64,000 nucleotides of DNA from an uncultured cyanobacterium (GCA_963766075.1 CAVYAN010000010.1:1-64000), one strand, 5' to 3'. Shown: positions 18,791 to 52,977, counted from the first letter of the stretch. The notes: generated from the sequence alone by a model not told the origin. A program made the numbers and translations.

Positions 18791-18857
18791 GTTCTCGATT
18801 CGCTTAACTATAGGCATTGGTTATGTGTGATTCCACCTATATATTTCCTGGGCTTTT

Positions 18858-33800: not shown

Positions 33801-35320
33801 ATGACTCCCAACTCCAGATGTTAATCGTCACAGCGGAGTTGATGTCTCGGTTCCCGCAGTTGAGTCCCCATGTTCACTGTTTGCACCTTGAGGCGATGGT
33901 ATCGGAACTCCAGTTGCAACCGCAAACCAATCCCACGAGTGCCGTTACTTCGACTCACCTCGCCTACGTAATTTATACGTCTGGTTCCACGGGCTTACCC
34001 AAGGGGGTCATGGTTGAACACAAGGGTTTGGGCAACTTAGCAGCCGCACAAATTCAGGCGTTTAACATAACGCCCCAGAGTTGTATCCTCCAGATGGCTC
34101 CCTTTAGTTTTGATGCCTCTGTGTCGGAGATTCTGATGGCGCTCTGTGCCGGAGCGCGGTTGGTGCTGGGTCACTACGATCAGTTATTGGGACAAGGTGA
34201 AATCCTGCAGCAACAGGGGGTTACCCACCTCACGATGCCGCCCTCTGCCCTCAGCATTCTGAGTTTAGAGGACTTAGCCGCCGTGGAGCATTTAATTGTC
34301 GCGGGCGAAGCCTGTTCGGCGGAATTGGTGGCGCAGTGGTCGCAACGGCCAGGGTTTTACAATGCCTATGGGCCAACGGAAGCAACTGTTTGTGCCACGA
34401 TCGCCAACTGTACCGAGACGCAGGCTAAACCCCCGATTGGTCGTCCCATCCAAAACGTCCAGGTTTACGTCGTCGATCAGCACCTGCAACCTGTTCCTGT
34501 GGGCGTTCCTGGCGAACTTCTGATTGGCGGTGTTGGGTTAGCACGGGGCTATCTACATCGACCCGAGTTGACGGCTGAGCGCTTTATTCCCCATCCCTTC
34601 TCCACGCAAGCCGATGAACGCTTGTATCGCACCGGAGATTTGGTGCGTTATCGCACCGATGGGCAGTTGGACTATCTCGGTCGCATCGATCATCAAGTCA
34701 AACTGCGCGGCTTCCGCATTGAATTGGGCGAAATCGAATCTGTATTGCGCTCCCATGCCGATGTGCAAGATGCTTTTGTCATCGTGCAAACGGCCCAGCC
34801 CGGGAGTCAACTTCTGACGGCCTATATTGTTCCCCATGCCCAAGCCCCAAGCGTTGAAGACTTGCAGCAACTGGTTGTCGATCGCCTGCCCCAGTACATG
34901 GTACCCGCTGCCTTTATTGTCTTAGCGGCGCTCCCGCTCACGCCCAATGGCAAGGTTGATCGCAAGGCGTTGCCGATTCCTGACACCCATCAGGTCATAC
35001 GCCAAACTGAGTTCGTCGCCCCCCGTAACGCTACCGAGGAAACCCTGGCGCAGGTCTGGGCCGAATTATTGGGGCTGGAGACCATCGGCGTGATGGACAA
35101 TTTCTTTGAACTTGGGGGGCATTCCTTGTTAGCCCTCCAGGTGATCGCCCGGATTCAGAAACTATTCCAGGTTCAAGTCCAGTTACAGCCGCTGTTTGAG
35201 CAGCCCACGATCGCCCAATTGGCCGATCTGATTTTAACTGAGCAGATGCTTCAGACCGATGACGACATCCTGGCGCAACTACTTGCCGAAGTAGAAGCCC
35301 TTCCCGAGGAAGACGCATAG
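18858..35320 (+). CDS. Hybrid PKS/NRPS megasynthetase KS-AT-ACP-(C-A-PCP)x4, probably one gene of about 5,490 aa interrupted by 3 indels and 1 in-frame stop
   Basis: ORFs 18858, 27302, 28210, 30329 and 31061 join inside A domains. AT has GHSLG and HAFH (malonyl); ACP MGADS; four HHxxxD C domains; four GGHSL PCPs. A codes read by hand: DLYNMSFIWK, DAEDIGTVVK, DILQLGLVWK, DASTIAAVCK. Confidence 0.88.
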
Positions 35321-35398
35321 CACATTCAGTTTAATTCTCTGTCTTGTTAAATTTTCTGTTTTGCCCATCCAGTTCACCCTATTCTCCCTGTTGAGTTC

Positions 35399-38300
35399 AT
35401 GTCAAACCTTGCCGATCGCCTTGCCACTCTCTCCCCGGCCAAACGTGCCCTGTTACTGCAAAAACTTCAAGCAGAAAATGCCGATCGCGGATCGGCAGCC
35501 TTGACAATTCCAGTCGCCGATCGCACCCAAACTTTGCCCCTGTCTTTTTCCCAACAGCGGTTGTGGTTTCTTAGTCAGTTTGAGGGCAGTCAGTCGGCCT
35601 ATAACATTCCCATCGCCCTAAAATTGACAGGGCACCTGCAAGAATCGGCATTATTGCAAAGTTTAAATCTCCTGGTGGAGCGCCACGAAGTCCTCCGCAC
35701 CCATTTTGCTCTGAAGCAGGGCGAACCCATTCAGATCATTGCCGATCGCTTATCTCTCCCCCTCGAGCGCTTAGACTGGCAAGCACTCACGACCGAGCAA
35801 GTCGAACCGCAGTTGACAGAACTCTTACAACAGGTCGCCCAGCACGCCTTTAATCTTCAACAAGGCCCCCTGTTTCGCATTGTTCTCATTCAGGTCGCCC
35901 CCAGCGTTCATTATTTAGTTGCGGCCTTCCACCATGTCATCACAGATGCCTGGTCGATGAATGTTCTGGTTCAAGAACTCATGGTCCATTACAGCGCCTT
36001 TGCCCAGGGGCAGTCGTCTCCCCTGCCTCCCCTGACGATTCAATATGCAGATTATGCCGTGTGGCAACGGCAGTGGCTAACCGAAGCAACGGCCACTGAA
36101 CAGTTAAGCTACTGGAAAGATCAATTGCGCGGCCTGTCGCCGTTATTGGAATTACCCACCGATCGGCCCCGCCCCCCCATTCAAAGTTTTAACGGTCGCT
36201 CCTTCGTCAAACATCTGGATTCCCACCTCACCCGCGAGTTAAAGGCACTCGCTAACAGCACCGGGGGGACGCTATTTATGGTGCTAGAAGCGGCCTTTGC
36301 ACTGTTGTTGAGTCGCCTCAGTCGCCAAACCGATATTGCCATTGGGACCCCCAGCGCTAACCGCAGCACCTACGATCTCGAACCCCTGATTGGTTTCTTC
36401 ATCAATACCCTGGTGTTGCGTAATGATTTAGACGGCAACCCCACCGTCCGGGAACTTCTGCAACGCACTAAGCAGATGGCTCTGGATGCCTATCGACACC
36501 AAGATATTCCGTTTGAGCATTTAGTCGAGGCCATCCAACCCGCTCGCACCATGAGCCATAGCCCCGTCTTTCAGGTGATGTTTGGTCTCCAAAATACACC
36601 CTCGACCACGTTAGAACTGCCCCAACTGACCTTGACTCCGGTTCCCTTGCCGAGTGAAACTGCTAAGTTTGACTTGACGTTGATCATGAATGAAACGGCT
36701 GATCACCTAGAGGCGACCTGGGAATATAACTGCGACTTATTTGACGCCGCTACCCTCGATCGCTGGGCGGGTCATTTTCAAACGCTGTTGAGCCAGATGG
36801 TGCAACAGCCTGATGCGCCGATTTCAACCCTGGCGCTGCTATCGTCCCCTGAGCACCAACAGATTGTCTATGACTGGAATGCGACTGCGGTTGAGTATAC
36901 CGATACGTTCTTGCTGCACGCTGGCTTTGAGCAACAGGTAGAACAAACGCCCGATGCGATCGCCCTGCTCTACGAAGACCAAACCCTCACCTATGCTGCC
37001 CTCAACGATCGGGCCAACCAGTTTGCCCAGCACCTCCGTCAGCAGGGGGTCACAACGGATGTGCTGGTGGGTGTGTATGTTGAGCGATCGCCGGAAATGA
37101 TCATCGGTGTTCTGGCCATTCTGAAAGCGGGTGGTGCTTACGTCCCCCTCGACCCCACCTATCCCTCTGAGCGAATTGCCGACATGATCGCCGATGCTGA
37201 AATGCCCATTCTACTGACTCAAAGTCACCTAGTTGAGCAGCTTCCGGGGCATCAAGCCCAAGTGATTTGCTTGGACGAACCCGCTACGGTTGCCGCTAAT
37301 TCGACGGCAAATCTCCCGCTATCGCTGTCGCCTGACCAACTGGCCTACGTGATTTATACCTCCGGGTCAACCGGCAAACCCAAGGGTGTGATGATCTCCC
37401 ACCGAGGAGCTGTCAATACTAACTTGGACATTAACCAGCGGTTTGGGATTGGCCCTGGCGATCGGGTGATTGGTCTGGCCTCCTTAAGTTTTGACCTATC
37501 GGTCTACGATATCTTCGGGTTCCTGGCAGCGGGGGGCACGATCGTCATTCCCCACCATCGGGATGTACTCAATCCCTCCGCTTGGATCCAACTGATGCAC
37601 GACCATCAAGTCACCTTTTGGGATACGGCTCCCGCTGTGATGGAAATGCTAATGACCTACGTCAGCAGTCAGGCATTGCGGTTACCCGATTCCTTGCGCG
37701 TGGTGATGATGAGTGGTGATGCGATTTCCGTCACCTTGCCCGATCAAATCCGCCGTCATGCCCAGCCACAAATCCAGGTCTATAGTTTTGGCGGTGCGAC
37801 AGAAGGGTCGATCTGGTCGATTTACTACCCGATCGCCCAGGTCGAGCCTGACTGGACCAGTATTCCCTACGGTAAACCGTTGTCCAATCAGCATTTTCAT
37901 ATTCTGGATGCCCATCTCAACCCGGTGCCCATTGGGGTTGCAGGAGAACTCCACATTGGGGGCACGGGGGTGGCCTTGGGCTACTTTAAGCGCCCTGAAC
38001 TGACGGCCCAACGGTTCATTCCTGACCCCTTTTTCCCAGCGCCCCAGGCCCAGTTGTATAAGACGGGCGATATGGGCCGCTATCTCCCCGATGGCACGAT
38101 CCAGTTTCTTGGGCGGATTGACCATCAGGTCAAAATTCGCGGGTTCCGGATTGAGTTGGGTGAAATTGAAGCGGCGGTGACGCAGCATCCCGGTGTCCGT
38201 GAGGCCGCAATTTTGGTGCGGGAGGATCAACCCGGCAGTAAGGTATTGTGCGCTTACGTGGTGCCCCAACCCCGTGAAACCGTGGAAGTTGCTGCACTGC

Positions 38301-38827
38301 GGCAGGCTTTACGGCAAAAACTCCCCGATTACATGGTGCCAGCCTTCATCCTGTTGCTGGAAGAACTCCCCTTAACCAGTAATGGCAAGGTTGATCGCAA
38401 GGCATTACCCCAACCCGATGCGGGTTCTACGACTGAGCAGGGCGCAATCGCCCTACCCCAAACCCAATTAGAACGGCAAATTGCCCAAATCTGGGCAGAA
38501 CATTTGCAAGTTAATCCCATTGGGTTGCAGGACAACTTTTTTGACCTGGGCGGACATTCCTTACTCATGGTCAAAATCTTCAGCGATTTACAGACAGCCC
38601 TCCAAACCGAGGCAAATGCGGCATTAAACATTGAACTGAGCATTGTTGATTTGTTTCAGTTTCCGACCATTGCCACCCTGGCCAATCATTTACAACATCG
38701 GCAAACTCAAGTCTCGGCCACAGCCCAGGCCCAACAACGAACGGAGGTGCGCACCAGCCAGCAGTCTACCGCCCTGCAACGGCGGGCCTTACGGCAGCAG
38801 TCCCGATCGTTAACTGAAGATGATTAA
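35399..38827 (+). CDS. Single-module NRPS C-A-PCP with a Cys-clade A domain
   Basis: HHVITDAWS, YTSGSTG, FDLSVYD, GGATEGSIWS and GGHSL; code DLYDMSFIWK; N-terminal docking-like LATLSPAKRALL. Confidence 0.93.
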   Translation: MSNLADRLATLSPAKRALLLQKLQAENADRGSAALTIPVADRTQTLPLSFSQQRLWFLSQFEGSQSAYNIPIALKLTGHLQESALLQSLNLLVERHEVLRTHFALKQGEPIQIIADRLSLPLERLDWQALTTEQVEPQLTELLQQVAQHAFNLQQGPLFRIVLIQVAPSVHYLVAAFHHVITDAWSMNVLVQELMVHYSAFAQGQSSPLPPLTIQYADYAVWQRQWLTEATATEQLSYWKDQLRGLSPLLELPTDRPRPPIQSFNGRSFVKHLDSHLTRELKALANSTGGTLFMVLEAAFALLLSRLSRQTDIAIGTPSANRSTYDLEPLIGFFINTLVLRNDLDGNPTVRELLQRTKQMALDAYRHQDIPFEHLVEAIQPARTMSHSPVFQVMFGLQNTPSTTLELPQLTLTPVPLPSETAKFDLTLIMNETADHLEATWEYNCDLFDAATLDRWAGHFQTLLSQMVQQPDAPISTLALLSSPEHQQIVYDWNATAVEYTDTFLLHAGFEQQVEQTPDAIALLYEDQTLTYAALNDRANQFAQHLRQQGVTTDVLVGVYVERSPEMIIGVLAILKAGGAYVPLDPTYPSERIADMIADAEMPILLTQSHLVEQLPGHQAQVICLDEPATVAANSTANLPLSLSPDQLAYVIYTSGSTGKPKGVMISHRGAVNTNLDINQRFGIGPGDRVIGLASLSFDLSVYDIFGFLAAGGTIVIPHHRDVLNPSAWIQLMHDHQVTFWDTAPAVMEMLMTYVSSQALRLPDSLRVVMMSGDAISVTLPDQIRRHAQPQIQVYSFGGATEGSIWSIYYPIAQVEPDWTSIPYGKPLSNQHFHILDAHLNPVPIGVAGELHIGGTGVALGYFKRPELTAQRFIPDPFFPAPQAQLYKTGDMGRYLPDGTIQFLGRIDHQVKIRGFRIELGEIEAAVTQHPGVREAAILVREDQPGSKVLCAYVVPQPRETVEVAALRQALRQKLPDYMVPAFILLLEELPLTSNGKVDRKALPQPDAGSTTEQGAIALPQTQLERQIAQIWAEHLQVNPIGLQDNFFDLGGHSLLMVKIFSDLQTALQTEANAALNIELSIVDLFQFPTIATLANHLQHRQTQVSATAQAQQRTEVRTSQQSTALQRRALRQQSRSLTEDD

Positions 38828-38837
38828 ACACTTCATC

Positions 38838-38885
38838 GTTTGGGGCTTGACGTTGGCGGGTACGCTGCCTGCTCAGCCCCCAAAC
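38838..38885 (+). other. Intergenic stem-loop between the NRPS and terminal PKS genes
   Basis: GTTTGGGGCT...AGCCCCCAAAC with an internal GGCGGG/CTGCC stem; no poly-T tail. Confidence 0.4.
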
Positions 38886-38972
38886 CAAATTCCCTCGCTT
38901 CCAGGCAGCGCCTAAAGACCGAAGGAACCGCTTAGTTTTCACCTTTCAGCAGGGCAACGAGGAGTAATCAAA

Positions 38973-41900
38973 ATGGATGGGATTGACCCAGGTATGTCAG
39001 AGACAATTTCAGACCCCTTAACCGAGATTTCTGCCACCAATATCGCCATTATTGGGATGGCAGGGCGGTTTCCGGGTGCCAAAAATGTTGAGGAATACTG
39101 GGATAATCTTCAAGCTGGCCGTGAAGGCATTAAGTTCTTCTCGGATGATGAGTTAAAAGCGGCGGGGGTTCCGGCCTATCAGTTGAAGCAGGCCAATTAC
39201 GTTAAAGCGGGGGGCGTGTTAGACGATGCGGAACTATTTGATGCCAACTTCTTTGGTTTTAGCCCTAAGGAAGCCCAGATCATTGATCCGCAACATCGCC
39301 TATTTTTAGAGCAGGCATGGACCGCTTTAGAACATGCAGGCTATAACTCCAACACCTATCGGGGGGCGATCGGGGTTTATGTCGGCGTGGGGATGAATAC
39401 CTATCTGTTGCGATCGCTCTATCCCCATCTGCTCACTTCGGCTGAGTTGGATAGCTATCAGGTGCAAATCCGCAATGATAAGGATTTTCTGCCCACCTTA
39501 GTATCCTACAAACTCAATCTGCGGGGACCGAGTCTCTCGGTTCAGACGGCCTGTTCAACTTCACTGGTAGCAGTGCATTTAGCCTGTCAAAGTTTGCTCA
39601 ACGGCGAGTGCGACATGGCCTTGAGTGGAGGTGTAACAGTCTTTGTCAACCCCACGGGCTATGTCTACAGTGAAGGGATGATTTTGTCCCCCGATGGCCA
39701 TTGTCGGGCCTTTGATGCTAAGGCCCAGGGCACTGTGGGCGGCAATGGGGTCGGTGTGGTAGTGCTGAAGCGGTTGGCGGATGCGATCGGCGATCGCGAT
39801 ACGATCTACGCCGTGATCAAAGGCTCAGCAGTCAATAATGATGGCACGGCCAAGGTGGGTTATACCGCGCCCAGCATCGAGGGACAAGCGGCTGTAATCA
39901 CCGAGGCCCAGGCGATCGCGGATACGCCTGCGGATACGATCAGCTATGTGGAAACCCACGGAACTGGGACTACGCTTGGCGATCCGATCGAAATCGCCGC
40001 CCTAACTCAAGCCTTTCGCCACACAACGACCAAAAACCAGTTTTGTGCCATTGGTTCCGTTAAAACCAACATTGGTCACTTAGATACTGCGGCTGGCGTC
40101 GCCAGTTTAATTAAAGTTGCCCTCGCCCTAAAACACAAAGCGATTCCACCGAGTCTCCATTTTGAGTCGCCGAACCCAGCCATTAACTTTGTCCACAGCC
40201 CCTTTTTCGTCAACACGCAACTGACCCCTTGGCCCGCCACCGATACCCCACGTCGGGCCGGAGTCAGTTCCTTTGGGATTGGCGGCACCAATGCCCATGC
40301 TATTGTCGAAGAAGCTCCTTCCGAGACGCTTGAACCGGGTGGGGCCAGTCGCCCTTGGCACCTGCTCGTGTTATCGGCTAAGTCAGAAACTGCCCTCACT
40401 CAACAACGCCAAAACCTCGCTGATTATTTGAGCCAACAGCCCACCGTTTGTTTGGCGGATGTTGCCTTTACCCTCGCCCAAGGCCGACAAGAATTTGCCC
40501 ATCGCTGGATGGGGTTGGTGCAAACGTCAGAAGCAGCGATTCAGACCCTGCAAGCTCCCCCGTCTGGTACAACCTTCCAGGTTCAGGCCAATCGCACCTC
40601 GGTGGTGTTTCTGTTTCCAGGACAAGGCGCTCAAGTCATTAACATGGGTCGCGACCTATACAAACATGAACCCGTATTTCGAGAGGCACTAGATACCTGT
40701 GCACAACTGCTCTTGCCCGACTTGCAGGATGATTTGCGGCAATTGCTTTATCCAAAAGCCGATTCCCCGGTTGATATTAACCAAACGCAATGGGCGCAAC
40801 CCCTCTTATTCTCGGTGGAATATGCCCTCGCGCAACTTTGGTTGAGTTGGGGGATCAAGCCAGAAGCGATGATTGGCCATAGTTTAGGAGAATATGTCGC
40901 TGCTTGCTTGGCGGGAGTTTTTAGTCTGGAAGAGGGCCTCTGGTTAGTTGCCCAGCGGGCCAAGTTGATGCAGCATCTGCCTCCAGGAGCAATGTTGGCG
41001 ATTCCGGGCACGGAGGCTGAGATCACTCCCTGGCTGCGGGATGGGGTGGTGCTGGCCGCCACCAATGGCGGCATTTGTACGGTGTCAGGGGAGTTGAGTG
41101 CGATCGCCGACTTAGAGCACCAACTCACCGCCGCTGGACAATCGGTGACACGCTTGCAGACTTCCCATGCGTTCCACAGTCCCTTAGTCGAATCCATGGT
41201 GGCGGATTTTCGCCACCTGCTGCAACAAATTTCTTTCCACGCTCCCCAGCGCACCTACCTGTCCAATGTAACCGGCACCTGGATTACCGCTCCCGAAGCG
41301 ACGGATCCCGAGTATTGGATCCAGCACCTCCGCCAGACTGTACGGTTTGGGGAAGCGGTAGCCCAATTGTTACCTGATCCGAACTGGATCTTTCTTGAGG
41401 TTGGCCCTGGGCGTACCTTGACGGCCTTAGTGCGTCGCCATCCCAACTATACCCAGGCCCAGCCTTTGCTGAATAGCCTCTTGACGACAGCGACGGCCTA
41501 TCTAACGGAGCCTCAGCATGTGCTCCAGACCTTGGGCCAATTGTGGCTCCATGGTGTGACGCCGAAATGGCAACGGTTCTATGCCAACGATAACTGCCAC
41601 CGCATTCCTCTCCCAACCTATCCGTTTGAGGGCCAACGCTACTGGATTGATCCTCCCCAGGGCAGCGCGCTGACCCTGAACTTTGGGCTAGCGCGCAATC
41701 CTGATCCGAGTCGCTGGTTCTACGCCCCCTCGTGGAAACAGCTACCGCCCCTCTCTTTACAACCCTTGGCAACCGATGACTGTTGGTTGCTGTTAATCGA
41801 TCGGATGGGGTTGGGCACTGCCCTAGCGGAATCCCTCAAAGCGGCGGGTCAGCGGGTCGTGACGGTGGCCTACGGCGATCGCAAATTTTGGCAATCCGCC

Positions 41901-44636
41901 GACCATGTCGTGAAAGTCGGTGATACTGCCAGCTTTGAACGGTTACTGCTCACCCTCCAGGTCCGCCAGCACTGGCCGCAGCACATCCTGCATCTATGGA
42001 GTCTCGATCCTGGGGCAGCAGATCTCAGGCTCGACACCGTGGCCAAGCAGACCGAAGCGGGATTACATGCGCTCTTATCTTTAGTGCAAGCGATCGGCAA
42101 GGTGGGGCAACCCCAGCCATTACAACTCAGTGTGATCACAAATGGGTCCTACAACCTACTGGGAACGGAATCCCTCAAGCCGCTGAAAAGTCTGCTGCTG
42201 GGGGCGGTGAAAGTAATTCCGCAGGAGTATGCTCAGCTATCCTGTCGCTACGTCGATCTTGAGGAGGTGTTTCCCCATGCTGTATCCCGCTCCCAATGGC
42301 TGCAAACGTTGTTGACGGAGTTAACGACTCCCGAGGCACCTCAAGAAGTCGCCTATCGCGGTCGATCGCGCTGGATTCCTACCTACGAGCCCATATCTTT
42401 ATCTGAGCCAGAGGACAATCCCCGGTTGCGATCGCAGGGCGTTTATCTGATTACCGGCGGCTTGGGCGGAATCGGATTAACCCTCGCCCATCACTTGGCT
42501 CAGACCGTTCAGGCTCGCTTGGTTCTCGTGAGTCGCTCTCCCTTTCCGGCCCGACGCCACTGGGCCTATTGGTGTTTGACCCATCCCAAAGAGGACCCCA
42601 TCAGCCAAAAGATTTACCGACTGCGGGAGCTAGAAGCCTACGGAGCAAAAGTGTGGGTCGAGCAGGCCGATGTCACTGATCACGCTTCACTGGAACCCCT
42701 GGTGGCTTCAATAGAAGCGGTTTTTGGCCCCATTCATGGAGTCATTCACTGTGCGGGGATGGCGGATTTTGGTGGGATTATTCAAGGCCGCAACCGCAGT
42801 GATACTGATCGCATTCTAGCCGCGAAAGTGACAGGCACATTGGTGTTGGATCGGGTCTTCCGCAACCGGCCCCTCGACTTTTGGGTGATGAGTAGCTCCT
42901 TGGGAACGGCCCTCTATAAAACCCTGTTTGGTCAGGTCGGTTACAGTGCGGCTAACGAGTTTTTAAGTGCTTTTTGTGAGTACAAGCAACAGACCACCCA
43001 AACCTTCACGGTCGCCATTCATTGGACCGAGTGGGATGAGGTGGGAATGGCGGTTGATTCCCGCGCAGAGCGCCTAAAAACCAAGGCCCGGGCCGAAGAA
43101 GAACAAAATTGGTTAGTTGCCCTTACCCCCGAAGAAGGTGCAGATGCCTTTGGGCGAATCTTAAATCAGCCTCAAGCCCGAATCGCCGTATCCATTCAGG
43201 ATTTGCAGCAATTATTGCAACAGCAAGCCCAGTGGAGCACCAATCAATTTTTGGAGTCCCTTACTCTGGAACCGGACACCAACCAACCCAAGCAACAGCG
43301 GCCTGAGCTAGCAACGGCCTATATGCCCGCCCAGACCCAGCTAGAAGCCCTGCTGATTGACCACTGGGAAACCTATCTTGGTATTGCACCCTTGGGACTA
43401 GACGACAGTTTTTACGATTTGGGGGGCGATTCTTTGCTTGCCTTGGGGTTACTGGCCCAAATCCAGAAAAAGCTGTCGGTTAATATCCCGATGACAGCCT
43501 TGTTAGAAATCCCCACTGTGGTCGGATTGGTCACCTATCTGCAAACTCATGCCGCTGACACGATCGCCCAGTGGCTTATCCCACTCGAATCCACGCAACC
43601 AGAATCAACCATGGCTCCCCTCCCTAACGACGCCTTCTCTACCCCAGCACCCTCTCAGCCGACTGCACACCCCCCGGATGCGCGCATCCCCCAGCCCCTA
43701 GCCTATCCAACCCCAATGGCGATGACCCAACTGACGACCCCAGCTCAGCCTGTGGCTCGGCCTGTCGCTCCCGTCGTTGCTCGACTCCAAGCGGGTAGCC
43801 CCCAACATCCGCCCTTGTTTTTTGTCCATCCTATCGGGGGCGGCATTAGCTGCTACAGCCCGTTAGCACGCCATCTCAATCGGGATTGTCCTTTCTACGG
43901 ATTGCGGGCGATCGGTCTCGATCAGGAAGCGCCACCGCTAGCTGATGTGCCCCAAATGGCGGCCTGTTATATCCAGACCATCCGCACCATTCAGCCTCAA
44001 GGTCCTTACTACCTTGGAGGGTGGTCGATGGGCGGAGTCGTAGCCTACGAAATGGCCCTCCAACTGTTTCAATTCGGTGAATCGGTATCGGGGTTGATCT
44101 TAATTGACAGTCCAGCCCCAGTGGCAACGCCTCGCGATCCGGCGATCGATTTTACGGTCTTTGCTAGAGGATTGGGCTTCTGCCCAGAGCAAGTGGACGC
44201 CTTTAGTCAGTTGTTACAATCTGATTCAACCGCCCTCGATATGACCCTCCAGCGGTTACTGACAGAAGGTCAACGCATCGGCCTGCTACCCCAAAGTTTT
44301 GCCCTGGCACAGCTCCAGCAACTTTATACTGTGTTCAACGCCCATAGTTTAGCGTTAAGTAACTATACGGCGGCGATCTGTCCTCAGCGGCTACCCACGC
44401 TGTTGCTCCAAGCCAAAATTGCTGATCATTCAATGTTTAGCCGCTTAGGACCGCAAGTGGCTGATCACTGGACCAAACTCTTGGGCCGATCGCCCTTGAT
44501 TCGGAACCTGCCAGGTGATCATTACACCTTGGTCACCGAACCCCAGGTAGCACTGCTGTCCACTCATCTCAACAGTTTTCTATGTCAAATTAAACCATCT
44601 GGGCGGACTGTGGCCGCAACCAGTTTCTCACCCTAA
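38973..44636 (+). CDS. Terminal PKS module KS-AT-KR-ACP-TE
   Basis: Post-NRPS-type KS (NDKD, VQTACSTS, ETHGTGT, IGHLD); AT GHSLG/HAFH; KR TGGLGGIG and GYSAAN; ACP LGGDSL; TE GWSMGG and GDHY. Confidence 0.93.
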   Translation: MDGIDPGMSETISDPLTEISATNIAIIGMAGRFPGAKNVEEYWDNLQAGREGIKFFSDDELKAAGVPAYQLKQANYVKAGGVLDDAELFDANFFGFSPKEAQIIDPQHRLFLEQAWTALEHAGYNSNTYRGAIGVYVGVGMNTYLLRSLYPHLLTSAELDSYQVQIRNDKDFLPTLVSYKLNLRGPSLSVQTACSTSLVAVHLACQSLLNGECDMALSGGVTVFVNPTGYVYSEGMILSPDGHCRAFDAKAQGTVGGNGVGVVVLKRLADAIGDRDTIYAVIKGSAVNNDGTAKVGYTAPSIEGQAAVITEAQAIADTPADTISYVETHGTGTTLGDPIEIAALTQAFRHTTTKNQFCAIGSVKTNIGHLDTAAGVASLIKVALALKHKAIPPSLHFESPNPAINFVHSPFFVNTQLTPWPATDTPRRAGVSSFGIGGTNAHAIVEEAPSETLEPGGASRPWHLLVLSAKSETALTQQRQNLADYLSQQPTVCLADVAFTLAQGRQEFAHRWMGLVQTSEAAIQTLQAPPSGTTFQVQANRTSVVFLFPGQGAQVINMGRDLYKHEPVFREALDTCAQLLLPDLQDDLRQLLYPKADSPVDINQTQWAQPLLFSVEYALAQLWLSWGIKPEAMIGHSLGEYVAACLAGVFSLEEGLWLVAQRAKLMQHLPPGAMLAIPGTEAEITPWLRDGVVLAATNGGICTVSGELSAIADLEHQLTAAGQSVTRLQTSHAFHSPLVESMVADFRHLLQQISFHAPQRTYLSNVTGTWITAPEATDPEYWIQHLRQTVRFGEAVAQLLPDPNWIFLEVGPGRTLTALVRRHPNYTQAQPLLNSLLTTATAYLTEPQHVLQTLGQLWLHGVTPKWQRFYANDNCHRIPLPTYPFEGQRYWIDPPQGSALTLNFGLARNPDPSRWFYAPSWKQLPPLSLQPLATDDCWLLLIDRMGLGTALAESLKAAGQRVVTVAYGDRKFWQSADHVVKVGDTASFERLLLTLQVRQHWPQHILHLWSLDPGAADLRLDTVAKQTEAGLHALLSLVQAIGKVGQPQPLQLSVITNGSYNLLGTESLKPLKSLLLGAVKVIPQEYAQLSCRYVDLEEVFPHAVSRSQWLQTLLTELTTPEAPQEVAYRGRSRWIPTYEPISLSEPEDNPRLRSQGVYLITGGLGGIGLTLAHHLAQTVQARLVLVSRSPFPARRHWAYWCLTHPKEDPISQKIYRLRELEAYGAKVWVEQADVTDHASLEPLVASIEAVFGPIHGVIHCAGMADFGGIIQGRNRSDTDRILAAKVTGTLVLDRVFRNRPLDFWVMSSSLGTALYKTLFGQVGYSAANEFLSAFCEYKQQTTQTFTVAIHWTEWDEVGMAVDSRAERLKTKARAEEEQNWLVALTPEEGADAFGRILNQPQARIAVSIQDLQQLLQQQAQWSTNQFLESLTLEPDTNQPKQQRPELATAYMPAQTQLEALLIDHWETYLGIAPLGLDDSFYDLGGDSLLALGLLAQIQKKLSVNIPMTALLEIPTVVGLVTYLQTHAADTIAQWLIPLESTQPESTMAPLPNDAFSTPAPSQPTAHPPDARIPQPLAYPTPMAMTQLTTPAQPVARPVAPVVARLQAGSPQHPPLFFVHPIGGGISCYSPLARHLNRDCPFYGLRAIGLDQEAPPLADVPQMAACYIQTIRTIQPQGPYYLGGWSMGGVVAYEMALQLFQFGESVSGLILIDSPAPVATPRDPAIDFTVFARGLGFCPEQVDAFSQLLQSDSTALDMTLQRLLTEGQRIGLLPQSFALAQLQQLYTVFNAHSLALSNYTAAICPQRLPTLLLQAKIADHSMFSRLGPQVADHWTKLLGRSPLIRNLPGDHYTLVTEPQVALLSTHLNSFLCQIKPSGRTVAATSFSP

Positions 44637-44650
44637 ATCTGGAGTCAGAC

Positions 44651-45838
44651 ATGATCCCTTCCTCTCGTCAATTTACGGCGTCACCTGTCTTGATCTGGGG
44701 CCTTTTGGGGCTAACGGTGGTGGCAATTACTATCCCCATCATCGGTATCCAGAAGTTTGCCCCTACCCAGACGCCGCCAACAGTGGCTAGCCCTGGGGTG
44801 CCTGATCAGCTACGCGTAGCCGCTTTGGGACGAATCGAACCGGTTTCCGGAGTCATTCAGGTGGGGGGACCTGTCGGTGAAATTGTCGGCCAACTCTTGA
44901 TTAAAGAAGGCGATTGGGTGACTCAAGGTCAAGTGCTTGGCTACCTGCGCAGTTATCAAGAGCGGCAGGAAGAATTAGCTAAGGCCAAACAAGATCTAGA
45001 CAGTGCTCGGGTGCGCCTAGCAGCCGAAACTCAATATAGTGAAGCCCAACTGCAAGAACGGACAATTGATGCGACTCAAGCTCCGGGGAGCCTGGAAAGT
45101 ACAATTGCGGCTCAGCAAGCACAAATTGAGTCACTGCGCTCGGAGCAGTCCCTGGCGACTAAGCAACTGAGCCGCTATGAATCTTTGGTAGCCCAAGGAG
45201 CTGCCCCCCGGCGTGAATTAGATGAACGCCAAGCCCAAGTGGATCAATTGGGTCAACGGATTCGCCAAGCCGAAGAAACCCTACAAAAAATCATCAAAGA
45301 CCGCGATCGCGAACTGGCAAATATCCAGGCCCAAGTGACCATAGCGCGCACAAATACGGCCCGGATTCAGTCCAATAGCCAAGTTGCAGCCGCAGAACAA
45401 GCGATCGCCCTCGCCCAAGTGCGCCTAGACAACACCATCATTAAAGCACCCCGCCAAGGTCGCATTTTGCGCATTGTCACTAAACCGGGGGAAAGTATTG
45501 GCGATGATGGTCGGGGTAAAGGCACCCTCGTGACACTGGCTGACACCAGCGCAATGCAGGTACTGGCTGAGGTAAATGAATCAAATATCCGGCAAGTTAA
45601 ACTCGGCCAAGTTGCAACCATTACGAGTCGGAACAAAGCCTTTGAAGAATCATTGAAAGGTCAGGTGAGTGAAATTGGGCGGCAAATTTTTAAGAATAAT
45701 GTGCTAAACGACGATCCCAGCGCCCTGAGCGATGCCAGGGTGATTCAAGTTAAGGTGCAATTGGATGATAGCCAAGCTGTGGCCAAATTTACGAATCTGC
45801 AAGTCGATGTCCAAATTGAAATCCAACCCACTCCTTAA
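44651..45838 (+). CDS. devB: DevB-family ABC exporter membrane fusion protein
   Basis: N-terminal TM helix, VAALGRIEP, long coiled coil, IKAP..G.IL, and C-terminal DARVIQVKV...TNLQVDV. Symbol is a family-level assignment. Confidence 0.85.
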   Translation: MIPSSRQFTASPVLIWGLLGLTVVAITIPIIGIQKFAPTQTPPTVASPGVPDQLRVAALGRIEPVSGVIQVGGPVGEIVGQLLIKEGDWVTQGQVLGYLRSYQERQEELAKAKQDLDSARVRLAAETQYSEAQLQERTIDATQAPGSLESTIAAQQAQIESLRSEQSLATKQLSRYESLVAQGAAPRRELDERQAQVDQLGQRIRQAEETLQKIIKDRDRELANIQAQVTIARTNTARIQSNSQVAAAEQAIALAQVRLDNTIIKAPRQGRILRIVTKPGESIGDDGRGKGTLVTLADTSAMQVLAEVNESNIRQVKLGQVATITSRNKAFEESLKGQVSEIGRQIFKNNVLNDDPSALSDARVIQVKVQLDDSQAVAKFTNLQVDVQIEIQPTP

Positions 45839-45874: not shown

Positions 45875-47017
45875 ATGTTTAATTCTGTTGCTTTATCCAA
45901 TTTGGCTTACGATCGCACGCGATTGCTCGTAGGGATTTCCGGGGTGGCGTTTGCCGTTTTACTCGTGTTTATCAATCTCGGGTTTTTAGGGGCGTTATCC
46001 GACACGGCAGGGTTGATCTATAACCAATTGGATGCCGATGTTTATCTGGTTTCCCCATTATCTCTAAATGGCACGGCAACGAAACCCTTTACGCGCGAGC
46101 GGCTTTATCAGGCAGTGAGTCAGCCTGATGTCGCTCAGGCGACTCCCCTGTATATTGGTTATCAACCTTGGCGCAATGCTGAGAATAACCAAGAGTTGTT
46201 TATTCTCAGTTTTGGCTTTAATCCTAAGGATAAACCCTTTTTATTGCCTGATGTGCGTTCTGATCAGGCGATCGCTGCCTTTTCTGAAACCAATACTGTG
46301 TTCTTCGATCGGCGATCGCTGCCGAAGTATGGCCCCCAGACCCTCGGCCTCAAAACCGAATTTAATAAGCGGGAGGTCACCCTCAATGGTCTATTCTCCC
46401 TTGGCGGCGGGTTAGCGGCGGAAGGCACCCTGATGATGAGCGATCAAAATTTTCTCCGTTATTTCAGCCCCCGCACGCTAGAGCGGATTGATTTGGGTCT
46501 ATTGAAGTTAAAGCCGGGGGCCAATGCTCCAGCCGTGGTGCTCGAACTCCGGAAACAGCTACCATCTGATGTCACAGTCTTTACGAAAGAGGAGATGATT
46601 GCGCGCGATCGGCAATACTGGATGGAAACCACCGCCGTCGGATTTATTTTTAGCCTCGGCGTGGGGGTGGCGCTCATTGTCGGGGCGGCTATTGTCTATC
46701 AAATTCTCTATGCGGATATTGCCAAAAACTTCCGGGAGTATGCCACCCTCAAGGCGATTGGATTTCGCAATCGCTTTTTGGTCAGTATGGTGCTGCAAGA
46801 GGCCTTGTTGCTAGCGGTGATGGGATATGTTCCGGGCCTGATTTTGGGGTTGGGAGCCTATCAACTGATTCTGCAAGCTACTAATGAAGCGATTCCCATG
46901 GTGATGACACCAGATCGAGTGGTCGTGGTATTTGGATTAGCGATCGCCACCTGTGTTTTATCGGGGATATTTTCCCTGCGTAAAATTTTGGTTGCCGATC
47001 CAGCTTCCGTCTTGTAG
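45875..47017 (+). CDS. devC: DevC-family ABC exporter permease (FtsX/MacB-like)
   Basis: RLLVGISGVAFAVLL, YQILYADI..EYATLKAIG, and ADPASV C-terminus. Family-level symbol. Confidence 0.87.
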   Translation: MFNSVALSNLAYDRTRLLVGISGVAFAVLLVFINLGFLGALSDTAGLIYNQLDADVYLVSPLSLNGTATKPFTRERLYQAVSQPDVAQATPLYIGYQPWRNAENNQELFILSFGFNPKDKPFLLPDVRSDQAIAAFSETNTVFFDRRSLPKYGPQTLGLKTEFNKREVTLNGLFSLGGGLAAEGTLMMSDQNFLRYFSPRTLERIDLGLLKLKPGANAPAVVLELRKQLPSDVTVFTKEEMIARDRQYWMETTAVGFIFSLGVGVALIVGAAIVYQILYADIAKNFREYATLKAIGFRNRFLVSMVLQEALLLAVMGYVPGLILGLGAYQLILQATNEAIPMVMTPDRVVVVFGLAIATCVLSGIFSLRKILVADPASVL

Positions 47018-47023
47018 ACATTT

Positions 47024-48199
47024 ATGAACTTGACCATGGCATCTCGTAACCCTTCTGTTTCCTGGCTAAATCTGACCCATAAACCAGGTCGCCTCATGCT
47101 GCTGCTGAGTGGTATCGTGTTTGCCGTGATTTTGATGTTCATGTTTTCTGGATTTAAACATGCGCTCTATGACAGTCAACTGGAAATTTTGCACCATCTG
47201 AAGGGAGATGTTTTTATTGTCAGTCAGCGTCGCCCCAGCTTTGCCACACCCAATTTCATTCCCCGGCACATTTTGTATCAAGCGCAATCTTATCGGGGTG
47301 TCAAGACGGCTTCAGCACTTTATTTGGGCGAAGCATTTTGGAAAAATCCCGACACGCGATTGGTCCGTCTAGCCCGCGTGTTGGCCTTTAATCTGAATCA
47401 ACCGTTGTTTGATTTCCCCGAATTACAACAGAATATTTCCGCATTGCAGGTGCCTAATACCGTTTGGGTCGATCGGTTGGCCCGTCCTGAACTCGGTCGC
47501 ACATCGCCAGGGACAGTCACCGAGTTGGCCGATCGAGCTGTGTATGTGGTCGGCAACTTCACGCTGGGTAACGATTTTGCGTCACTCAATGGTAATCTCC
47601 TGATGAGCGAAGACAACTTCCAACAGTATTTTTCTGGCCGCGATCCTAAGGAAGGAAATCGTTCCTTAAATGAAGTGGATATTGCCGTTGTTGAGGTTGA
47701 ACCCCAATTCCAGCCGCAGGCTGTGGCTACGACGCTACGCCAAAATTTGCCGAAAAGCGTGAATGTCATGACCCGTGAGGAAATCATGCAGTGGGAACGG
47801 ACGGTTTGGGAGGAAAGTTCTAACATTGGCTTTGTGTTTGGCATCCTGACAACAATGGGATTTGTGATTGGGGTGATTCTTTGCTACCAAATCATTTATG
47901 CCGATGTGACCGATCACCTGCGAGAATATGCCACCCTCAAAGCGATGGGATATCAGAATCGGTTTCTATACGCGGTGGTGTTTCAAGAGTCTTTATTGCT
48001 GGCGGTGATGGCCTTCATTCCTGGCCTTTTACTCAGTGCTGGCCTTTACAGCTTAGCCAAAGGGGCGACGGGCTTAATGTTTCAGATGACCTTTGACAGA
48101 AGCACACAACTTTTCATCATGACAGTTCTGATGTGTTTTATTTCGGGTTTGGTGTCACTGGTAAAGTTGCATCAATCCGATCCAGCGGATATTTTTTAG
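47024..48199 (+). CDS. devC: Second DevC-family ABC exporter permease
   Basis: GIVFAVILMFM, YQIIYADVTDHLREYATLKAMG, and SDPADIF C-terminus. Family-level symbol. Confidence 0.87.
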   Translation: MNLTMASRNPSVSWLNLTHKPGRLMLLLSGIVFAVILMFMFSGFKHALYDSQLEILHHLKGDVFIVSQRRPSFATPNFIPRHILYQAQSYRGVKTASALYLGEAFWKNPDTRLVRLARVLAFNLNQPLFDFPELQQNISALQVPNTVWVDRLARPELGRTSPGTVTELADRAVYVVGNFTLGNDFASLNGNLLMSEDNFQQYFSGRDPKEGNRSLNEVDIAVVEVEPQFQPQAVATTLRQNLPKSVNVMTREEIMQWERTVWEESSNIGFVFGILTTMGFVIGVILCYQIIYADVTDHLREYATLKAMGYQNRFLYAVVFQESLLLAVMAFIPGLLLSAGLYSLAKGATGLMFQMTFDRSTQLFIMTVLMCFISGLVSLVKLHQSDPADIF

Positions 48200-48215: not shown

Positions 48216-51200
48216 ATGCAGCAATTTCTCATTCTTTGGTTAGGACAACTGGTTTCCTTGGTCGGATCACAGCTAACTGGATTCGCCCTCGGCGTTTGGG
48301 TCTATCAACAAACCCATTCGACCACGTTGTTTGCGCTGCTCATTGGGTTAAATGTCCTGCCGGTGATTGTGCTATCGCCTTTGATTGGAACGATTGTTGA
48401 TCGCTGGAACCGGCGCACAGTCATGCTGTTGAGTGATTTTGGGGCAGGGCTGAGTACAGTTGCTTTGGCGATCGCCCTAAAGGCCAACTATCTGCCGATT
48501 GGTCTAATTGCGGTCTTAATTGCCCTCAATGCCACCTTTAGTAGTTTTATGCGACCGGCTTACACCGCTGCAACGACACAATTAGTCGCTGCTAAAGATC
48601 TCGATCGAGCCAGTGGCCTGATGCAAATTGGCTCATCGGTCGCACAATTAATTGCGCCCATTCTGGGCGGAGCCTTACTCAAGTTCATTGGTCTTCCCGG
48701 CATCATCGGCATCGATGTGATCACCTTTTTAATTGCCGTTCTAACCCAAATGATTGTACGGTTACCCCCACCTGTTCCGGTGGCAACGGTGACACAATCC
48801 TCCTCTTCCCTCCTTAAAGACTTTCTCCAAGCGCTCCAATTTCTCAAACAGCGTCCTGGACTATTGGCATTGCTTGGTTTCTTTGTCGTCAAAAATTTTT
48901 TAACCTCAATTGTCTACGTTGCCACCACACCCTATGTTTTGTCCTTTTCGTCAGAGCTTGTCCTGGGCAGCATTTTGTCCGTGGGCGGTCTGGGAATGGT
49001 TGTAGGGGGCATTGTTTTGAGTATATTTCCGATCGGGCAATCGCGAATCCTGACCATTCAGGTCTTTGCACTCCTCGGCGGGGTCACACTCATCATGCTC
49101 GCCATGAAGAATTCAATTCCAATCTTCATGGTGGGTTCATTTTTATTCTTTCTCGGTCTCCCTTTCATTCATGGCTCCGGTCAGGTGATTTTCCAAAAGA
49201 AAGTGCCTCAGGCTCTACAAGGACGCATATTTGCTTTTAATGAAGCGCTGGCCGGATCGTCGGTGCCGTTGGGGTATCTAGCAGCAGGTCCGCTCAGTGA
49301 TGTTGTGTTTGAACCTTGGATGCAGCCCGATGGGTGGCTAGCTGGTACGATTGGCCTGTTCTTGGGAACGGGACCTGGACGCGGCATCGCCCTATTATTC
49401 ATCCTCCTCGGAGTAATACACGGGGCCCTCGCCTTAATGATTCAACTGTACATGCCCTTACGGAAGATCGAATGGCAATTACCCGATCAGGCAGAAGAAC
49501 CTTATGAAGAATTTGTCACTATTCCAACTAAATCTGATTCTACTTCCACCCTACGGCCTCCCAAAGAGAATATCATGATGGAATTCTCTAACTCCGTACA
49601 ATCCTATCAAAACCCCGTTCTTGATCATTCTCATGGCATCCGACCCACGATGGAACCCGTTATTTCTATTCAAAAATTAAATCATTTCTTTGGTAAGGGT
49701 GATTTATCTAAACAGGTGTTAATTGACATTAACCTGTCCATCCAACCAGGAGAAATTGTGATTATGACGGGGCCATCAGGTTCCGGAAAAACGACCCTCC
49801 TGACGTTAATGGGAGCCCTCCGCTCTGTTCAAGACGGCAGTTTAAAAGTCTTGGGTAGAGAATTAAATCAGGCGACCAATCAAAAGTTAGTGGAGGTGCG
49901 GCGGAATATTGGGTATATCTTCCAAGCCCATAACTTGCTACCGTTTATGACGGCTCGGCAGAATGTGCGGATGTCTTTAGCGTTACAATCGAAGACCGAT
50001 CGCGCCCATGCTTTGCAGAAAGTTGATGAGGTCTTAAATGCAGTTGGATTGGGGAATCACCTGAACTACTATCCTGAAAAACTTTCGGGGGGACAGAAAC
50101 AACGGGTGGCGATCGCCCGCGCCCTTGTCAACGAACCAGCTCTCATCTTAGCCGACGAACCGACTGCTTCCTTGGATAGTAAAACTGGCCGTGAAGTCGT
50201 TGAGTTAATGTATCGTCTCGCCAAAGAACAGCACTGCACGATCATCTTAGTCACCCATGACAATCGCATTTTGGACATTGCCGATCGCATTATCAACTTG
50301 GAAGATGGACGGCTATTACCAGCAGTTGGAGAAACTAAGCACCTGCGCCCCAGCACTACCCTAATTTCATCCGGGGGCAACGCACCAATATTGAATTCTC
50401 CGACTAAATCGACATCACAGGTGCTCAATCAAATCTACGATTTGGATTCATTGAGAGTTGAATCTACTTCGACGGAGACAGTAATCAACTTAAGACAGAC
50501 ACCCTCAGCATTGACACCTTCAGCATTTCCTGAGACAGGATATCCAGGGGGGCCATCCCTGCCGGTGGAACAACCAGAAAGTCAATTGAGACACTTGCCG
50601 CCCGGAACAGATTCATTAAGAGTCGAATCTGACTCAACATCTGATTCGACAGAGACACTGATCAACTTAAGGCAGACGCCTGCAGCCTTCCCACAGACAG
50701 AATATCCAGAGGTATCATCCCTGTCTGTGGAACAGCCAGAAAGTCAATTGAGACACTTGCCGCCTGGAACAGATTCATTAAGAGTCGAATCTGACTCAAC
50801 ATCTGATTCGACAGAGACACTGATCAACTTAAGGCAGACGCCTGCAGCCTTCCCACAGACAGGATATTCAGAGGTATCATCCCTGTCTGTGGAACAGCCA
50901 GAAAGTCAATTGAGACACTTGCCGCCTGGAACAGATTCATTAAGAGTCGAATCTGACTCAACATCTGATTCGACAGAGACACTGATCAACTTAAGGCAGA
51001 CGCCTGCAGCCTTCCCGCAGACAGGATATTCAGAGGTGTCGTCCCTGTCTGTGGAGCAACCAGAAAGTCAACTGGGACACTTACCGCCAGGGGCAATCCA
51101 ACCCCATAAACGATATAAGATTGTTTGTATTGATGATAGTCCGGCGGTGCTTTGTTCTCTGAGGGCCTTTTTATCTGATGATCTGTTTTCAGTCTATCTA

Positions 51201-51473
51201 ATTGATGATCCAATTCAGTCATTGATCCAATTGATTAAAATCAAGCCGGATATGGTGATTTTAGATATTAATATGCCCAGACTGGATGGTTATCAGTTAT
51301 GTTCATTATTGCGCCATCATGAAAAATTTAAACATATTCCAGTCATTGTGATTACCGGTGATCCAAAATTGATTGATCTCCAAGCGGCCCAAAAAGTCGG
51401 AGTATCGGAGTGTCTTGTGAAACCGTTCGATCAATCTGATTTAATGGTAAAGCTTTTCCCCCATTTGACTTAA
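48216..51473 (+). CDS. Fusion ORF: MFS transporter + DevA-type ABC ATPase + 54-aa repeats + response-regulator receiver domain
   Basis: [33 protein letters not shown]. ATPase: [57 protein letters not shown]. Confidence 0.8.
50445..51092 (+). repeat. 162-bp coding tandem repeat, 4 copies (first one degenerate)
   Basis: ATTCATT(A/G)AGAGT recurs at 50446, 50611, 50773 and 50935. Confidence 0.95.
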
Positions 51474-51572: not shown

Positions 51573-52977
51573 CAGGGTAAGCGCATCTAAAAAAGTAGCG
51601 AAATGCACAGATATTTAGGGCGAATCATGGGCTGAGGGCATAGAATGCAAAAATTCGTCATCGCCCGCTTGTCCCGATGTGACGTTGTCAGAGAGGATCA
51701 AAGTGTCCCCTTCATCCCCGTATGACGTATGCCTGAAGGCTTTGCTCCAGCGCCTGAACCCGCGCCAAACCGTCCGCTAGTTTTAGACGCACAAGCCTTA
51801 GGTCAGCGTCTCCAGTCCTGTTTTGCGGCGATTCAAGACCCACGGGTGGAACGGACTCGCGAACATCAACTGGGCGATATTTTAACCATTGCCATTCTCT
51901 CCACCATTGCCGGTGGTCAAGGGTGGGAAGATATGGAAATCTACGGATTGGGTAAACAAGCGTGGTTGTCAACCTTCCTGGCGTTGCCCAACGGCATTCC
52001 CAGTCCGGATACGTTCCGGCGAGTGTTAGAACGCATTCATCCGCAACAACTTGAGCAATGCTTTGAGCAATGGGTTCGCCTCTTAGTTGAGCGCTTAGGT
52101 GTGCAAGTCATTGCGATTGATGGCAAAGGTGTGAATGGCTCCTATGACCGTAAATCAGGCAAGAAAGCGCTCCATTTTGTCAGTGCTTGGGCCACCGAAC
52201 ATCGTCTCGTGTTAGCCCAAACGAAAGTGCAAGATAAGTCCAACGAAATTACGGCCATTCCTGCTCTCTTAGAATTACTCGATATTGCCGGTTGTATCGT
52301 CACACTCGATGCCATGGGAACCCAGAAAACCATCGCAGCACAGATCCAGGCAGTCGGCGCTGACTACATTCTGAGCCTCAAAGCCAACCATCCGACGTTG
52401 TTTGCACAAGTTAAAACTTGGTTCCAAGCCGCGACGACGCGTGGGTCCTTACCAGCGCCCGTTGAATATCAGACCGAAGCCGGGCATCATCGCATTGAAA
52501 TTCGTAAAGTTTGGAGCGTTTCCCTGGCGCAACTGCCGCCCCTGCATCAAAGCGACGAATGGGTGGGATTGCGCACCATTGTCATCGTTGAACGCACCCG
52601 GCATTTATGGAATGAAACCACCCACGAAGTTCAGTTCTATCTCAGCAGTTTACCGGCAGACTGTGCCCGCATTGCCAGCGCGATTCGTCAACACTGGGGC
52701 ATTGAAAATTCGCTCCATTGGGTGCTCGATGTCACCTTCGGGGAGGATGATTGTCGAGTCCGCTCGATGCATGCCCCACACAACCTGGCTGTAATCAGAC
52801 GCTTTGCCCTCAATGCCCTCAATCGCGAATCTTCCTGGAAGCGCAGTCTCAGGCAAAAGTCGAAACGCGCCGCCCTGGATGACCACTACATGCTCAACAT
52901 TTTGACCGCTGCTTTACCCGAATCCAGGCAGAACCTAGAACCTAGCTGTCAATAGGGTTTGAGATGCGCTTACCCTG
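51573..52977 (+). mobile_element. ISAs1-family insertion sequence with 16-bp terminal inverted repeats
   Basis: CAGGGTAAGCGCATCT (51573-51588) and AGATGCGCTTACCCTG (52962-52977); no flanking direct repeat. Confidence 0.93.
51729..52955 (+). CDS. ISAs1-family transposase
   Basis: DPR..., GIPSPDTFRRV, IAIDGK, KSNEITAIP, TLDAMGTQK and HWGIENSLHWVLDVTFGED. Confidence 0.95.
   Translation: MPEGFAPAPEPAPNRPLVLDAQALGQRLQSCFAAIQDPRVERTREHQLGDILTIAILSTIAGGQGWEDMEIYGLGKQAWLSTFLALPNGIPSPDTFRRVLERIHPQQLEQCFEQWVRLLVERLGVQVIAIDGKGVNGSYDRKSGKKALHFVSAWATEHRLVLAQTKVQDKSNEITAIPALLELLDIAGCIVTLDAMGTQKTIAAQIQAVGADYILSLKANHPTLFAQVKTWFQAATTRGSLPAPVEYQTEAGHHRIEIRKVWSVSLAQLPPLHQSDEWVGLRTIVIVERTRHLWNETTHEVQFYLSSLPADCARIASAIRQHWGIENSLHWVLDVTFGEDDCRVRSMHAPHNLAVIRRFALNALNRESSWKRSLRQKSKRAALDDHYMLNILTAALPESRQNLEPSCQ

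Follow-up and report, generated by a model that had tools for sequence, protein, structure and literature searches.

A stretch of 64,000 nucleotides from an uncultured cyanobacterium (GCA_963766075.1, CAVYAN010000010.1:1-64000; hereafter the window) carries at 48216..51473 a single open reading frame (ORF) of 1085 aa, without an internal stop, in which a major facilitator superfamily (MFS) carrier, a DevA-type ATP-binding cassette (ABC) ATPase and a PatA-type receiver domain are joined by two linkers. We refer to its product as P0001. The gene lies on the plus strand, as do the export operon and the biosynthetic cluster described below, and the window's contig, C10, belongs to a metagenome-type assembly of 126 contigs that is 85% complete.

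The complete MFS domain (aa 1-417; 48216..49466) is followed by a poorly conserved linker (aa 418-480; 49467..49655) with candidate internal starts at Met454/455 (49575-49580) and Met479 (49650), and then by a DevA-family (MacB-type) ATPase (aa 481-700; 49656..50315), a low-complexity linker predicted to be disordered (aa 701-964; 50316..51107), and a receiver related to those of PatA and PixG (aa 965-1085; 51108..51470). Pfam matches to MFS_1 (residues 7-350), ABC_tran (504-651) and Response_reg (969-1079) each exceeded the cut-off, and the DevA model TIGR02982 scored 359 bits against a cut-off of 295.8. The catalytic motifs of the ATPase are all intact (Walker A Lys-525, Gln-570, the LSGGQ signature, Asp-647/Glu-648 and His-681), and the receiver pocket retains Asp-973, Asp-974, Asp-1017, Thr-1047, and Lys-1069. 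A 162-bp unit, corresponding to 54 aa, is repeated in tandem in the second linker (50533-51088; 3.4 copies, 95% matches). The profile matches, the residue alignment and the repeat scan confirm the domain order and motifs given in a preliminary description of the locus. In an AlphaFold2 (AF2) model of the full-length protein, the predicted local confidence (pLDDT) was below 50 across residues 703-963, the predicted TM-score (pTM) was 0.44, and the N-terminal half of the ATPase was poorly modelled. Promoter and terminator scans gave signals at chance level.

The preliminary description had warned that the MFS-ATPase join could be an indel artefact, pointing to a TAA in another frame at 49529 and to an ATGATG at 49575-49580. 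Both are present at these positions; the TAA carries no weight as a sign of an artefact, since stops in the two other frames are expected. An indel or assembly error would also be in keeping with the frameshifts in a nonribosomal peptide synthetase (NRPS) gene on the same contig, and contigs from two sequencing runs leave the junction (49171-49671) unspanned. The homologues, however, show the same fusion. A search with residues 380-720 of P0001 yielded, among the 120 matches listed, 13 proteins with MFS, ABC and receiver domains (P0001 and 12 others), 20 with MFS and ABC domains only and two with ABC and receiver domains, a tally that favours fused forms because only proteins of at least 596 aa were admitted. 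Two further triple fusions were found as cluster members, which brings the total to 15 including P0001. The 14 others originate from four source collections (JGI, NCBI, ENA, and Logan), their MFS domains are 59-90% identical to that of P0001 where compared, and the named close homologues are cyanobacterial.

Across the 15 triple fusions the MFS-ATPase linker varies from 36 to 149 aa, and the reading frame is open throughout. Mean pairwise identity among 13 aligned triple fusions is 0.21 for this linker and 0.20 for the second one, which spans 55-265 aa across homologues; the corresponding values are 0.65 for the MFS domain, 0.80 for the ATPase, and 0.60 for the receiver, and the ATPase motif residues (K, Q, S, D, E, H) are invariant in 13/13. 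The nearest relative of P0001, P0002, is joined at the identical point, and in three other genomes (L011, L012, and L162) devB-devC-devC is followed by one fusion ORF of 893-902 aa. NRPS and polyketide synthase (PKS) genes stand directly upstream of the export operon in L012 and L162, while the third contig starts within devB. An artefact is thereby refuted as the source of the MFS-ATPase join and appears hardly credible, and we regard the fusion gene as almost certainly genuine. The ATPase-receiver join, like the first, is conserved in the 14 other triple fusions.

The architecture search found the family in at least 15 proteins, and it is rare, not widespread: it occurs in three of 400 sampled genomes of the class, two of them with contigs identical to L011 and L012 (G866 and G727, respectively; each contig counted once), which limits its generality. 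In a search of 1.84 billion representatives the fusion family formed one cluster at 50% identity; database labels of MFS-DevA and DevA-receiver proteins read plainly 'MFS transporter' or 'DevA'. Within the triple-fusion clade, P0123, P0124, P0193, and P0194 lack the MFS; these four may reflect splitting or truncation of the records instead of genuine fission, because P0222, P0434 and P0436 are fragments of one gene on one contig while their cluster mate P0435 is fused. A DNA search of 40 related genomes gave matches to the ATPase part only, a metagenome scan with the MFS domain alone gave no confirmed relatives, and none of 20 matching plasmid records covers 80% of P0001. No ABC-receiver cluster was present among the Atlas rows shown, which is no evidence of novelty.

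Upstream of the fusion gene lies the remainder of an export operon, comprising the periplasmic adaptor gene devB (44651..45838; TIGR02971, 262 bits, cut-off 129), a first devC permease gene (45875..47017; TIGR01185, 345 bits, cut-off 290), and a second (47024..48199; 342 bits with the same model) that ends 16 bases before the fusion gene. The two permeases are 37% identical to each other. The DevB/DevC/DevC context proposed earlier is therefore borne out, with all three proteins above the model cut-offs and P0001 as the operon's only DevA. By sequence, a DevA with intact motifs and adjoining DevB and DevC identify a DevBCA (MacB-type) exporter; the canonical DevA is a stand-alone soluble ATPase chain, and here the ATPase is fused to an MFS carrier and a receiver. 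A single gene for a two-domain outer-membrane efflux protein (OEP, TolC-like) is found in the genome, on contig C121.

DevA-receiver proteins also occur without the carrier. Among the best 120 matches of a search with an MFS-less relative, 37 combined ABC and receiver domains, and 36 carry this receiver type after removal of P0244, whose receiver is unrelated. A scan with the receiver alignment found an ATPase and a receiver in one ORF at 2/80 loci. MFS-less operons take the form devB-devC-devA/receiver, as in L060 and in L175:799-20000 (genome G1312, on a 4.5-Mb contig), where the operon follows a PKS cluster. Judged from its sequences, the DevA family appears to be one that recruits regulatory tails repeatedly. 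The L175 PKS cluster holds three tandem flavin-halogenase-like genes and an RPE65-type oxygenase gene. Some DevA ATPases end in other C-terminal tails, namely GAF, cyclic-nucleotide-binding or TerB domains (P0037-P0071 and Atlas rows).

The MFS domain of P0001 matched PF07690 over positions 1-343 of the 347-position profile with 109 bits, and scored 187 bits with the DHA3 subfamily model TIGR00900, below its cut-off of 319.6. Its AF2 model resembles the MFS folds of VMAT1 and VMAT2, with Foldseek TM-scores of 0.78-0.82 (by target) to VMAT1, and residues Asp-62, Arg-66, and Asp-74 are invariant in 15/15 triple fusions. A simple hydropathy scan gave 11 segments; we assume twelve helices from the family to which the domain belongs. 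Among relatives of this carrier, of which 21 selected proteins were scanned, fusion to NRPS or PKS modules, thioesterases or hydrolases is frequent, and 27 of 127 family representatives exceed 600 aa. Unfused members exist as well, such as P0289 of the same subfamily, and in a phylum-wide sample a related MFS was found in 65 of 400 genomes, the matches listed all lying in open frames of at most 500 aa. In P0294 and P0300, chains of about 1280 aa, a related MFS is joined to a penicillin-amidase or an M28 peptidase domain, where export could possibly be coupled to maturation of the product.

A second MFS-DevA fusion, lacking the receiver, is found in the Nostocales (P0014-P0036; L170:17566-19497 and L172:17143-19071). 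Its MFS domain is 26% identical to that of P0001, and its ATPases form a branch of their own (support 100/99), apart from those of the triple fusions. Within one family, 4 of 251 genomes carry it, among them assemblies of one and two contigs; searches of sets of 301 and 144 additional genomes did not find a receiver-less MFS-DevA at full length. At both loci whose surroundings were read, this gene closes an AMP-binding/(reductase)/desaturase cluster, accompanied by a divergently oriented tetR, a DevB-like gene and devC; the DevB-like gene was called by position and look, with no Pfam match at 1e-8, and one of the two contexts also has a plain devA. On this evidence the Nostocales fusion arose separately from the triple fusion. 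That the join originated twice, and in settings that resemble each other, speaks for a benefit of the tether. Pumps of the MacB family draw substrates out of the periplasm and do not carry them over the inner membrane (PMC8277102), so the route by which cytoplasmic products reach such a pump is left to be explained. The tethering of an MFS carrier to DevA twice in cyanobacteria, in both cases at the end of a cluster that begins with a fatty-acid-activating enzyme, suggests a physical relay from the carrier to the pump, and we consider such a relay in P0001 fairly probable.

The covalent join, made twice independently, could also mean that the ATPase powers the MFS carrier directly, as a hybrid primary transporter. 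The ATPase is nevertheless an ordinary DevA and the sole ATPase for two adjoining DevC permeases, the linker between it and the carrier is unconserved, and the MFS family residues are kept. We consider direct powering very unlikely.

The first linker raises the question of a second product. An in-frame Met occurs in 15/15 MFS-ATPase linkers and in 11/15 lies 22-31 residues before the ATPase, the position at which many MFS-less relatives begin. The motif IMME is common to P0001, P0002 and P0435 despite otherwise divergent linkers. Among 13 related, non-independent sequences, Met is five-fold more frequent in the first linker (27/754) than in the second (10/1439), and the sequences represent only about eight lineages; the Met may be a relic of the ancestral start. 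In L011, L012 and L162, hence in 3/4 DNA copies, the linker ATG falls within the most open 2-5% of mRNA windows, as at true starts, whereas the linker ATGs of the window copy lie in ordinary mRNA structure (27-57%) and pair weakly with a Shine-Dalgarno partner (-2.9 kcal/mol, weaker than 4/19 other internal ATGs). A working internal start in this linker may equally well be present or absent. The independent start proposed near 49575 is thus tenable as the start of a second product, given the Met in all 15 linkers; its start signals in the window are weak, and it does not indicate a separate gene.

These observations bear on a further alternative, in which two largely independent proteins are made, mostly a DevA-receiver chain from the internal Met (or by cleavage of the linker), while the MFS carrier exports alone and the join chiefly reflects gene order and co-expression. 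Such a reading draws on the conserved Met at the usual start of MFS-less relatives, its enrichment, the open mRNA around it in most DNA copies, and the promiscuity with which this MFS family fuses. It does not readily account for a frame that stays open across linkers of such variable length and low identity, although the search favoured fused forms, nor for the Nostocales fusion, which has a short linker that is Met-free in the full-length linkers printed; the weak pairing and ordinary structure at the window ATGs also speak against it. We consider two separate proteins unlikely.

The receiver is of the PatA type, as previously suggested: among 79 proteins found with it, the nearest non-fused ones combine a PATAN domain (DUF4388) with a receiver, at about 50-55% identity. 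The closest paralogue in the same genome (50% identity) is encoded at the head of a PatA-CheY-CheW-MCP-CheA-like operon on contig C12; it matches the PATAN profile PF14332, and P0001 does not. In a quick tree of 92 receivers from a short search, 49/49 ATPase-fused receivers fell into one group (SH-aLRT 91) inside the PatA-type receivers, and since all of them group together, a single capture from a PatA/PixG-type regulator is likely. Comparison of the fused receivers with 57 PatA proteins gave identities of 0.76 for the pocket loop and 0.72 for the beta5-alpha5 loop, which we take to be the kinase-facing parts, and of 0.20 for the alpha4 motif.

The phospho-accepting Asp is kept in 15/15 triple fusions and in 29/36 MFS-less forms, and the full canonical pocket set in 11/15 and 15/36, respectively, compared with 57/57 PatA proteins. 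Divergence of the receiver follows the state of the pocket. Four close pairs with an intact pocket have receiver identities of 120/121, 120/121, 117/121, and 112/121 (99, 99, 97, and 93%), with ATPases at 95-98% and MFS domains at 0.90-0.94; the pair with the most decayed pocket shows 77/121 (64%) in the receiver versus 0.93 in the ATPase, and a partly degenerate pair 79% versus 85%. Because receiver identity tracks pocket state in this way, the receiver in the P0001 lineage is likely under strong constraint tied to phosphorylation, while other lineages appear to be losing receiver function. This pattern lends indirect support to a possible phosphorylation gate on export. Among the MFS-less forms, the phospho-acceptor is replaced by Glu in P0200, P0215 and P0224 (3/36) and by Asn in P0211, P0214 and P0217 (3/36), which could represent locked-on and locked-off variants, respectively. 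P0211, P0214 and P0217 also carry Gln in place of the ATPase His.

Alternatively, the receiver could have a role other than gating the ATPase: it could place the pump at a pole or a chemosensory array, drain phosphate from a motility pathway as a sink, or serve as a module whose binding does not depend on phosphorylation. The long and variable ATPase-receiver linker would suit such roles, as would the many relatives that keep a receiver with a degenerate pocket, including the Glu and Asn variants, and Tax1 receivers serve as phosphate sinks (PMC11181946). On the other side, localisation and pilus-motor binding by PatA-type proteins stem from PATAN and not from the receiver (10.1101/2021.06.11.447907), and PATAN is absent here; decay of the receiver after pocket loss further links its role in this lineage to phosphorylation, which fits a sink and not a passive binding module. 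A purely non-gating receiver seems rather improbable to us, and control of the exporter by phosphorylation is slightly favoured. The AF2 model of the MFS-less P0209 consists of two well-folded domains whose mutual arrangement is not fixed (pTM 0.48; Atlas model 0.53), a result neutral on transient contact. The genome encodes four CheA-like kinases, on contigs C12, C72, C74, and C93. As stated earlier, no histidine kinase lies in the window: none of the genome's 80 HATPase_c matches falls on contig C10.

A biosynthetic cluster of 32 kb immediately precedes the operon (12185..44636), with genes for AMP-binding (FAAL-like)-ACP-PKS, PKS-NRPS, NRPS, and PKS-thioesterase proteins. Its first domain is presumably a fatty acyl-AMP ligase, as judged from its position and from known architectures rather than from a specific model. 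The cluster likely makes the cargo of the exporter, which its gene content suggests to be a lipopeptide. An orthologous cluster with an uninterrupted NRPS is present in L043/L044/L012, the L012 copy being 59-79% identical to the window gene by gene. In the window, three frameshifts (near 27.3, 28.3, and 30.3-30.4 kb) and one in-frame stop (near 31.05 kb) break the middle NRPS within 4 kb (27270-31060); the L044 orthologue reads through in a single frame. The repeated modules may have been misassembled here, or the gene may be decaying. The export genes of the window copy are intact.

We propose a combined model of a two-step lipopeptide exporter, an MFS carrier followed by a MacB-type pump, tuned by receiver phosphorylation, which as a whole could prove right or wrong with about equal probability. 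In the first step the MFS domain would carry the product over the inner membrane. In the second, as expected from other MacB-family members, the ATPase domains would dimerise beneath DevC1 and DevC2 and power expulsion of the product from the periplasm by way of DevB and the TolC-like channel encoded in the genome; owing to the tether, the sites at which the product enters and leaves the periplasm would lie next to each other. Control would fall to the receiver, which would stem from a single capture in which the ATPase replaced the PATAN output domain of a PatA/PixG-type regulator; Asp-1017 would be phosphorylated, most plausibly by one of the CheA-like kinases, and the flexible linker would let the receiver reach the ATPase or the pump. 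A soluble DevA-receiver chain may be made in addition from an internal start in the first linker, so that the ATPase dimer need not hold two MFS domains. A bolder version, in which a chemosensory (motility) kinase directly switches a natural-product pump whose motor is tied to the MFS carrier feeding it from the cytoplasm, with tethered and free motors made from one gene, is tentative and somewhat unlikely.

Several points weigh against this proposal. DevBCA export can do without the tether, as the MFS-less operons (L060, L175), the unfused P0289, and the promiscuous fusions of this MFS family indicate. The pocket is degenerate in 4/15 triple fusions and 21/36 MFS-less forms, which rules out phosphorylation as a feature of the whole family, and orphan PatA regulators frequently act without being phosphorylated (10.1101/2021.06.11.447907). 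The alpha4 output face varies even among the fusions (0.33), the 55-265-aa range of the second linker implies that a fixed geometry is not required, and contig C10 carries no kinase. The window copy may also lack its cargo, because the NRPS is interrupted in this assembly.

The closest known system is DevBCA-HgdD of Anabaena sp. PCC 7120 with its MacB-type paralogues (PMC6161253, PMC8277102), with which the locus shares DevB, DevC and DevA above the model cut-offs; a TolC-like gene, for a possible channel partner, lies elsewhere in the genome. In that system DevA and DevC form dimers with DevB and HgdD (PMC6161253), and the soluble DevA is a chain of its own; in P0001 it has an MFS domain at the N-terminus and a receiver at the C-terminus, and the operon holds two different devC genes. 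The neighbours also differ, NRPS/PKS lipopeptide genes here and heterocyst glycolipid genes there, which argues against a heterocyst glycolipid exporter proper. The cyanochelin B cassette (MFS CctC, DevBCA-like CctGHJ; 10.64898/2026.07.30.741596) likewise combines an NRPS lipopeptide cluster with an MFS carrier and a DevBCA-type pump; there, however, MFS and DevBCA are separate genes with uptake genes alongside, and the available part of that source does not mention a receiver. As for the receiver, it groups with those of PixG, PilG and PatA (PMC11181946, 10.1101/2021.06.11.447907) and keeps their pocket, yet it has an ABC ATPase in PATAN's place, has lost the alpha4 motif, and is encoded outside a chemosensory operon. 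The PixG receiver is phosphorylated by the CheA-like PixL, controlling the PixG output domain (PMC11181946). The principle of a plug-on regulatory domain is familiar from ABC ATPases and MFS carriers fused to CBS, cNMP, PAS or UspA domains and from LacS with its EIIA-like domain (PMC10710835, PMC8154325); PMC10710835 contains neither 'receiver' nor 'response regulator', and no MFS-ABC ATPase fusion appears in the available text of either source. LacS was named in this 2023 review as the sole bacterial transporter under direct phosphorylation (PMC10710835).

P0001 is apparently an undescribed, rare form of the DevBCA/MacB exporter with two unusual additions. MFS-DevA or DevA-receiver proteins were not described in the full-text literature searched, from which subscription papers, including two transporter-fusion surveys that possibly list MFS-ABC fusions, were mostly beyond reach. 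Transporters controlled by direct phosphorylation also include Rv1747 and KdpB. If the bolder version of the model holds, an ABC exporter would itself be the target of two-component control, and cyanobacteria would have evolved a built-in relay from MFS to MacB twice. With a receiver attached to an exporter's ATPase, direct two-component control of export becomes open to test in a small soluble protein, for which the MFS-less P0209, assigned by NCBI to the cultured Chondrocystis sp. NIES-4102, is a ready subject.

Some further features of the cluster and its surroundings were noted. No siderophore uptake genes were recognised among the window ORFs. The first PKS (12185-18790) lacks the dehydratase and enoylreductase of its orthologue at L043:7437-16124 (2201 versus about 2860 aa), and its acyltransferase gave a partial profile match; the products of the two clusters therefore probably differ. 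The first and last adenylation domains (18858-27338; 35399-38827) are nearly identical and stand behind ordinary condensation domains; their signature is typical of cysteine-activating domains, and a PDB search with the last one did not identify its substrate. The last module of L162 has a different adenylation domain. A DDE_Tnp_1 transposase is encoded just downstream of the fusion gene (51729-52955), and two tandem, near-identical transposase-like ORFs (21-809 and 1064-1852) lie at the start of the contig.

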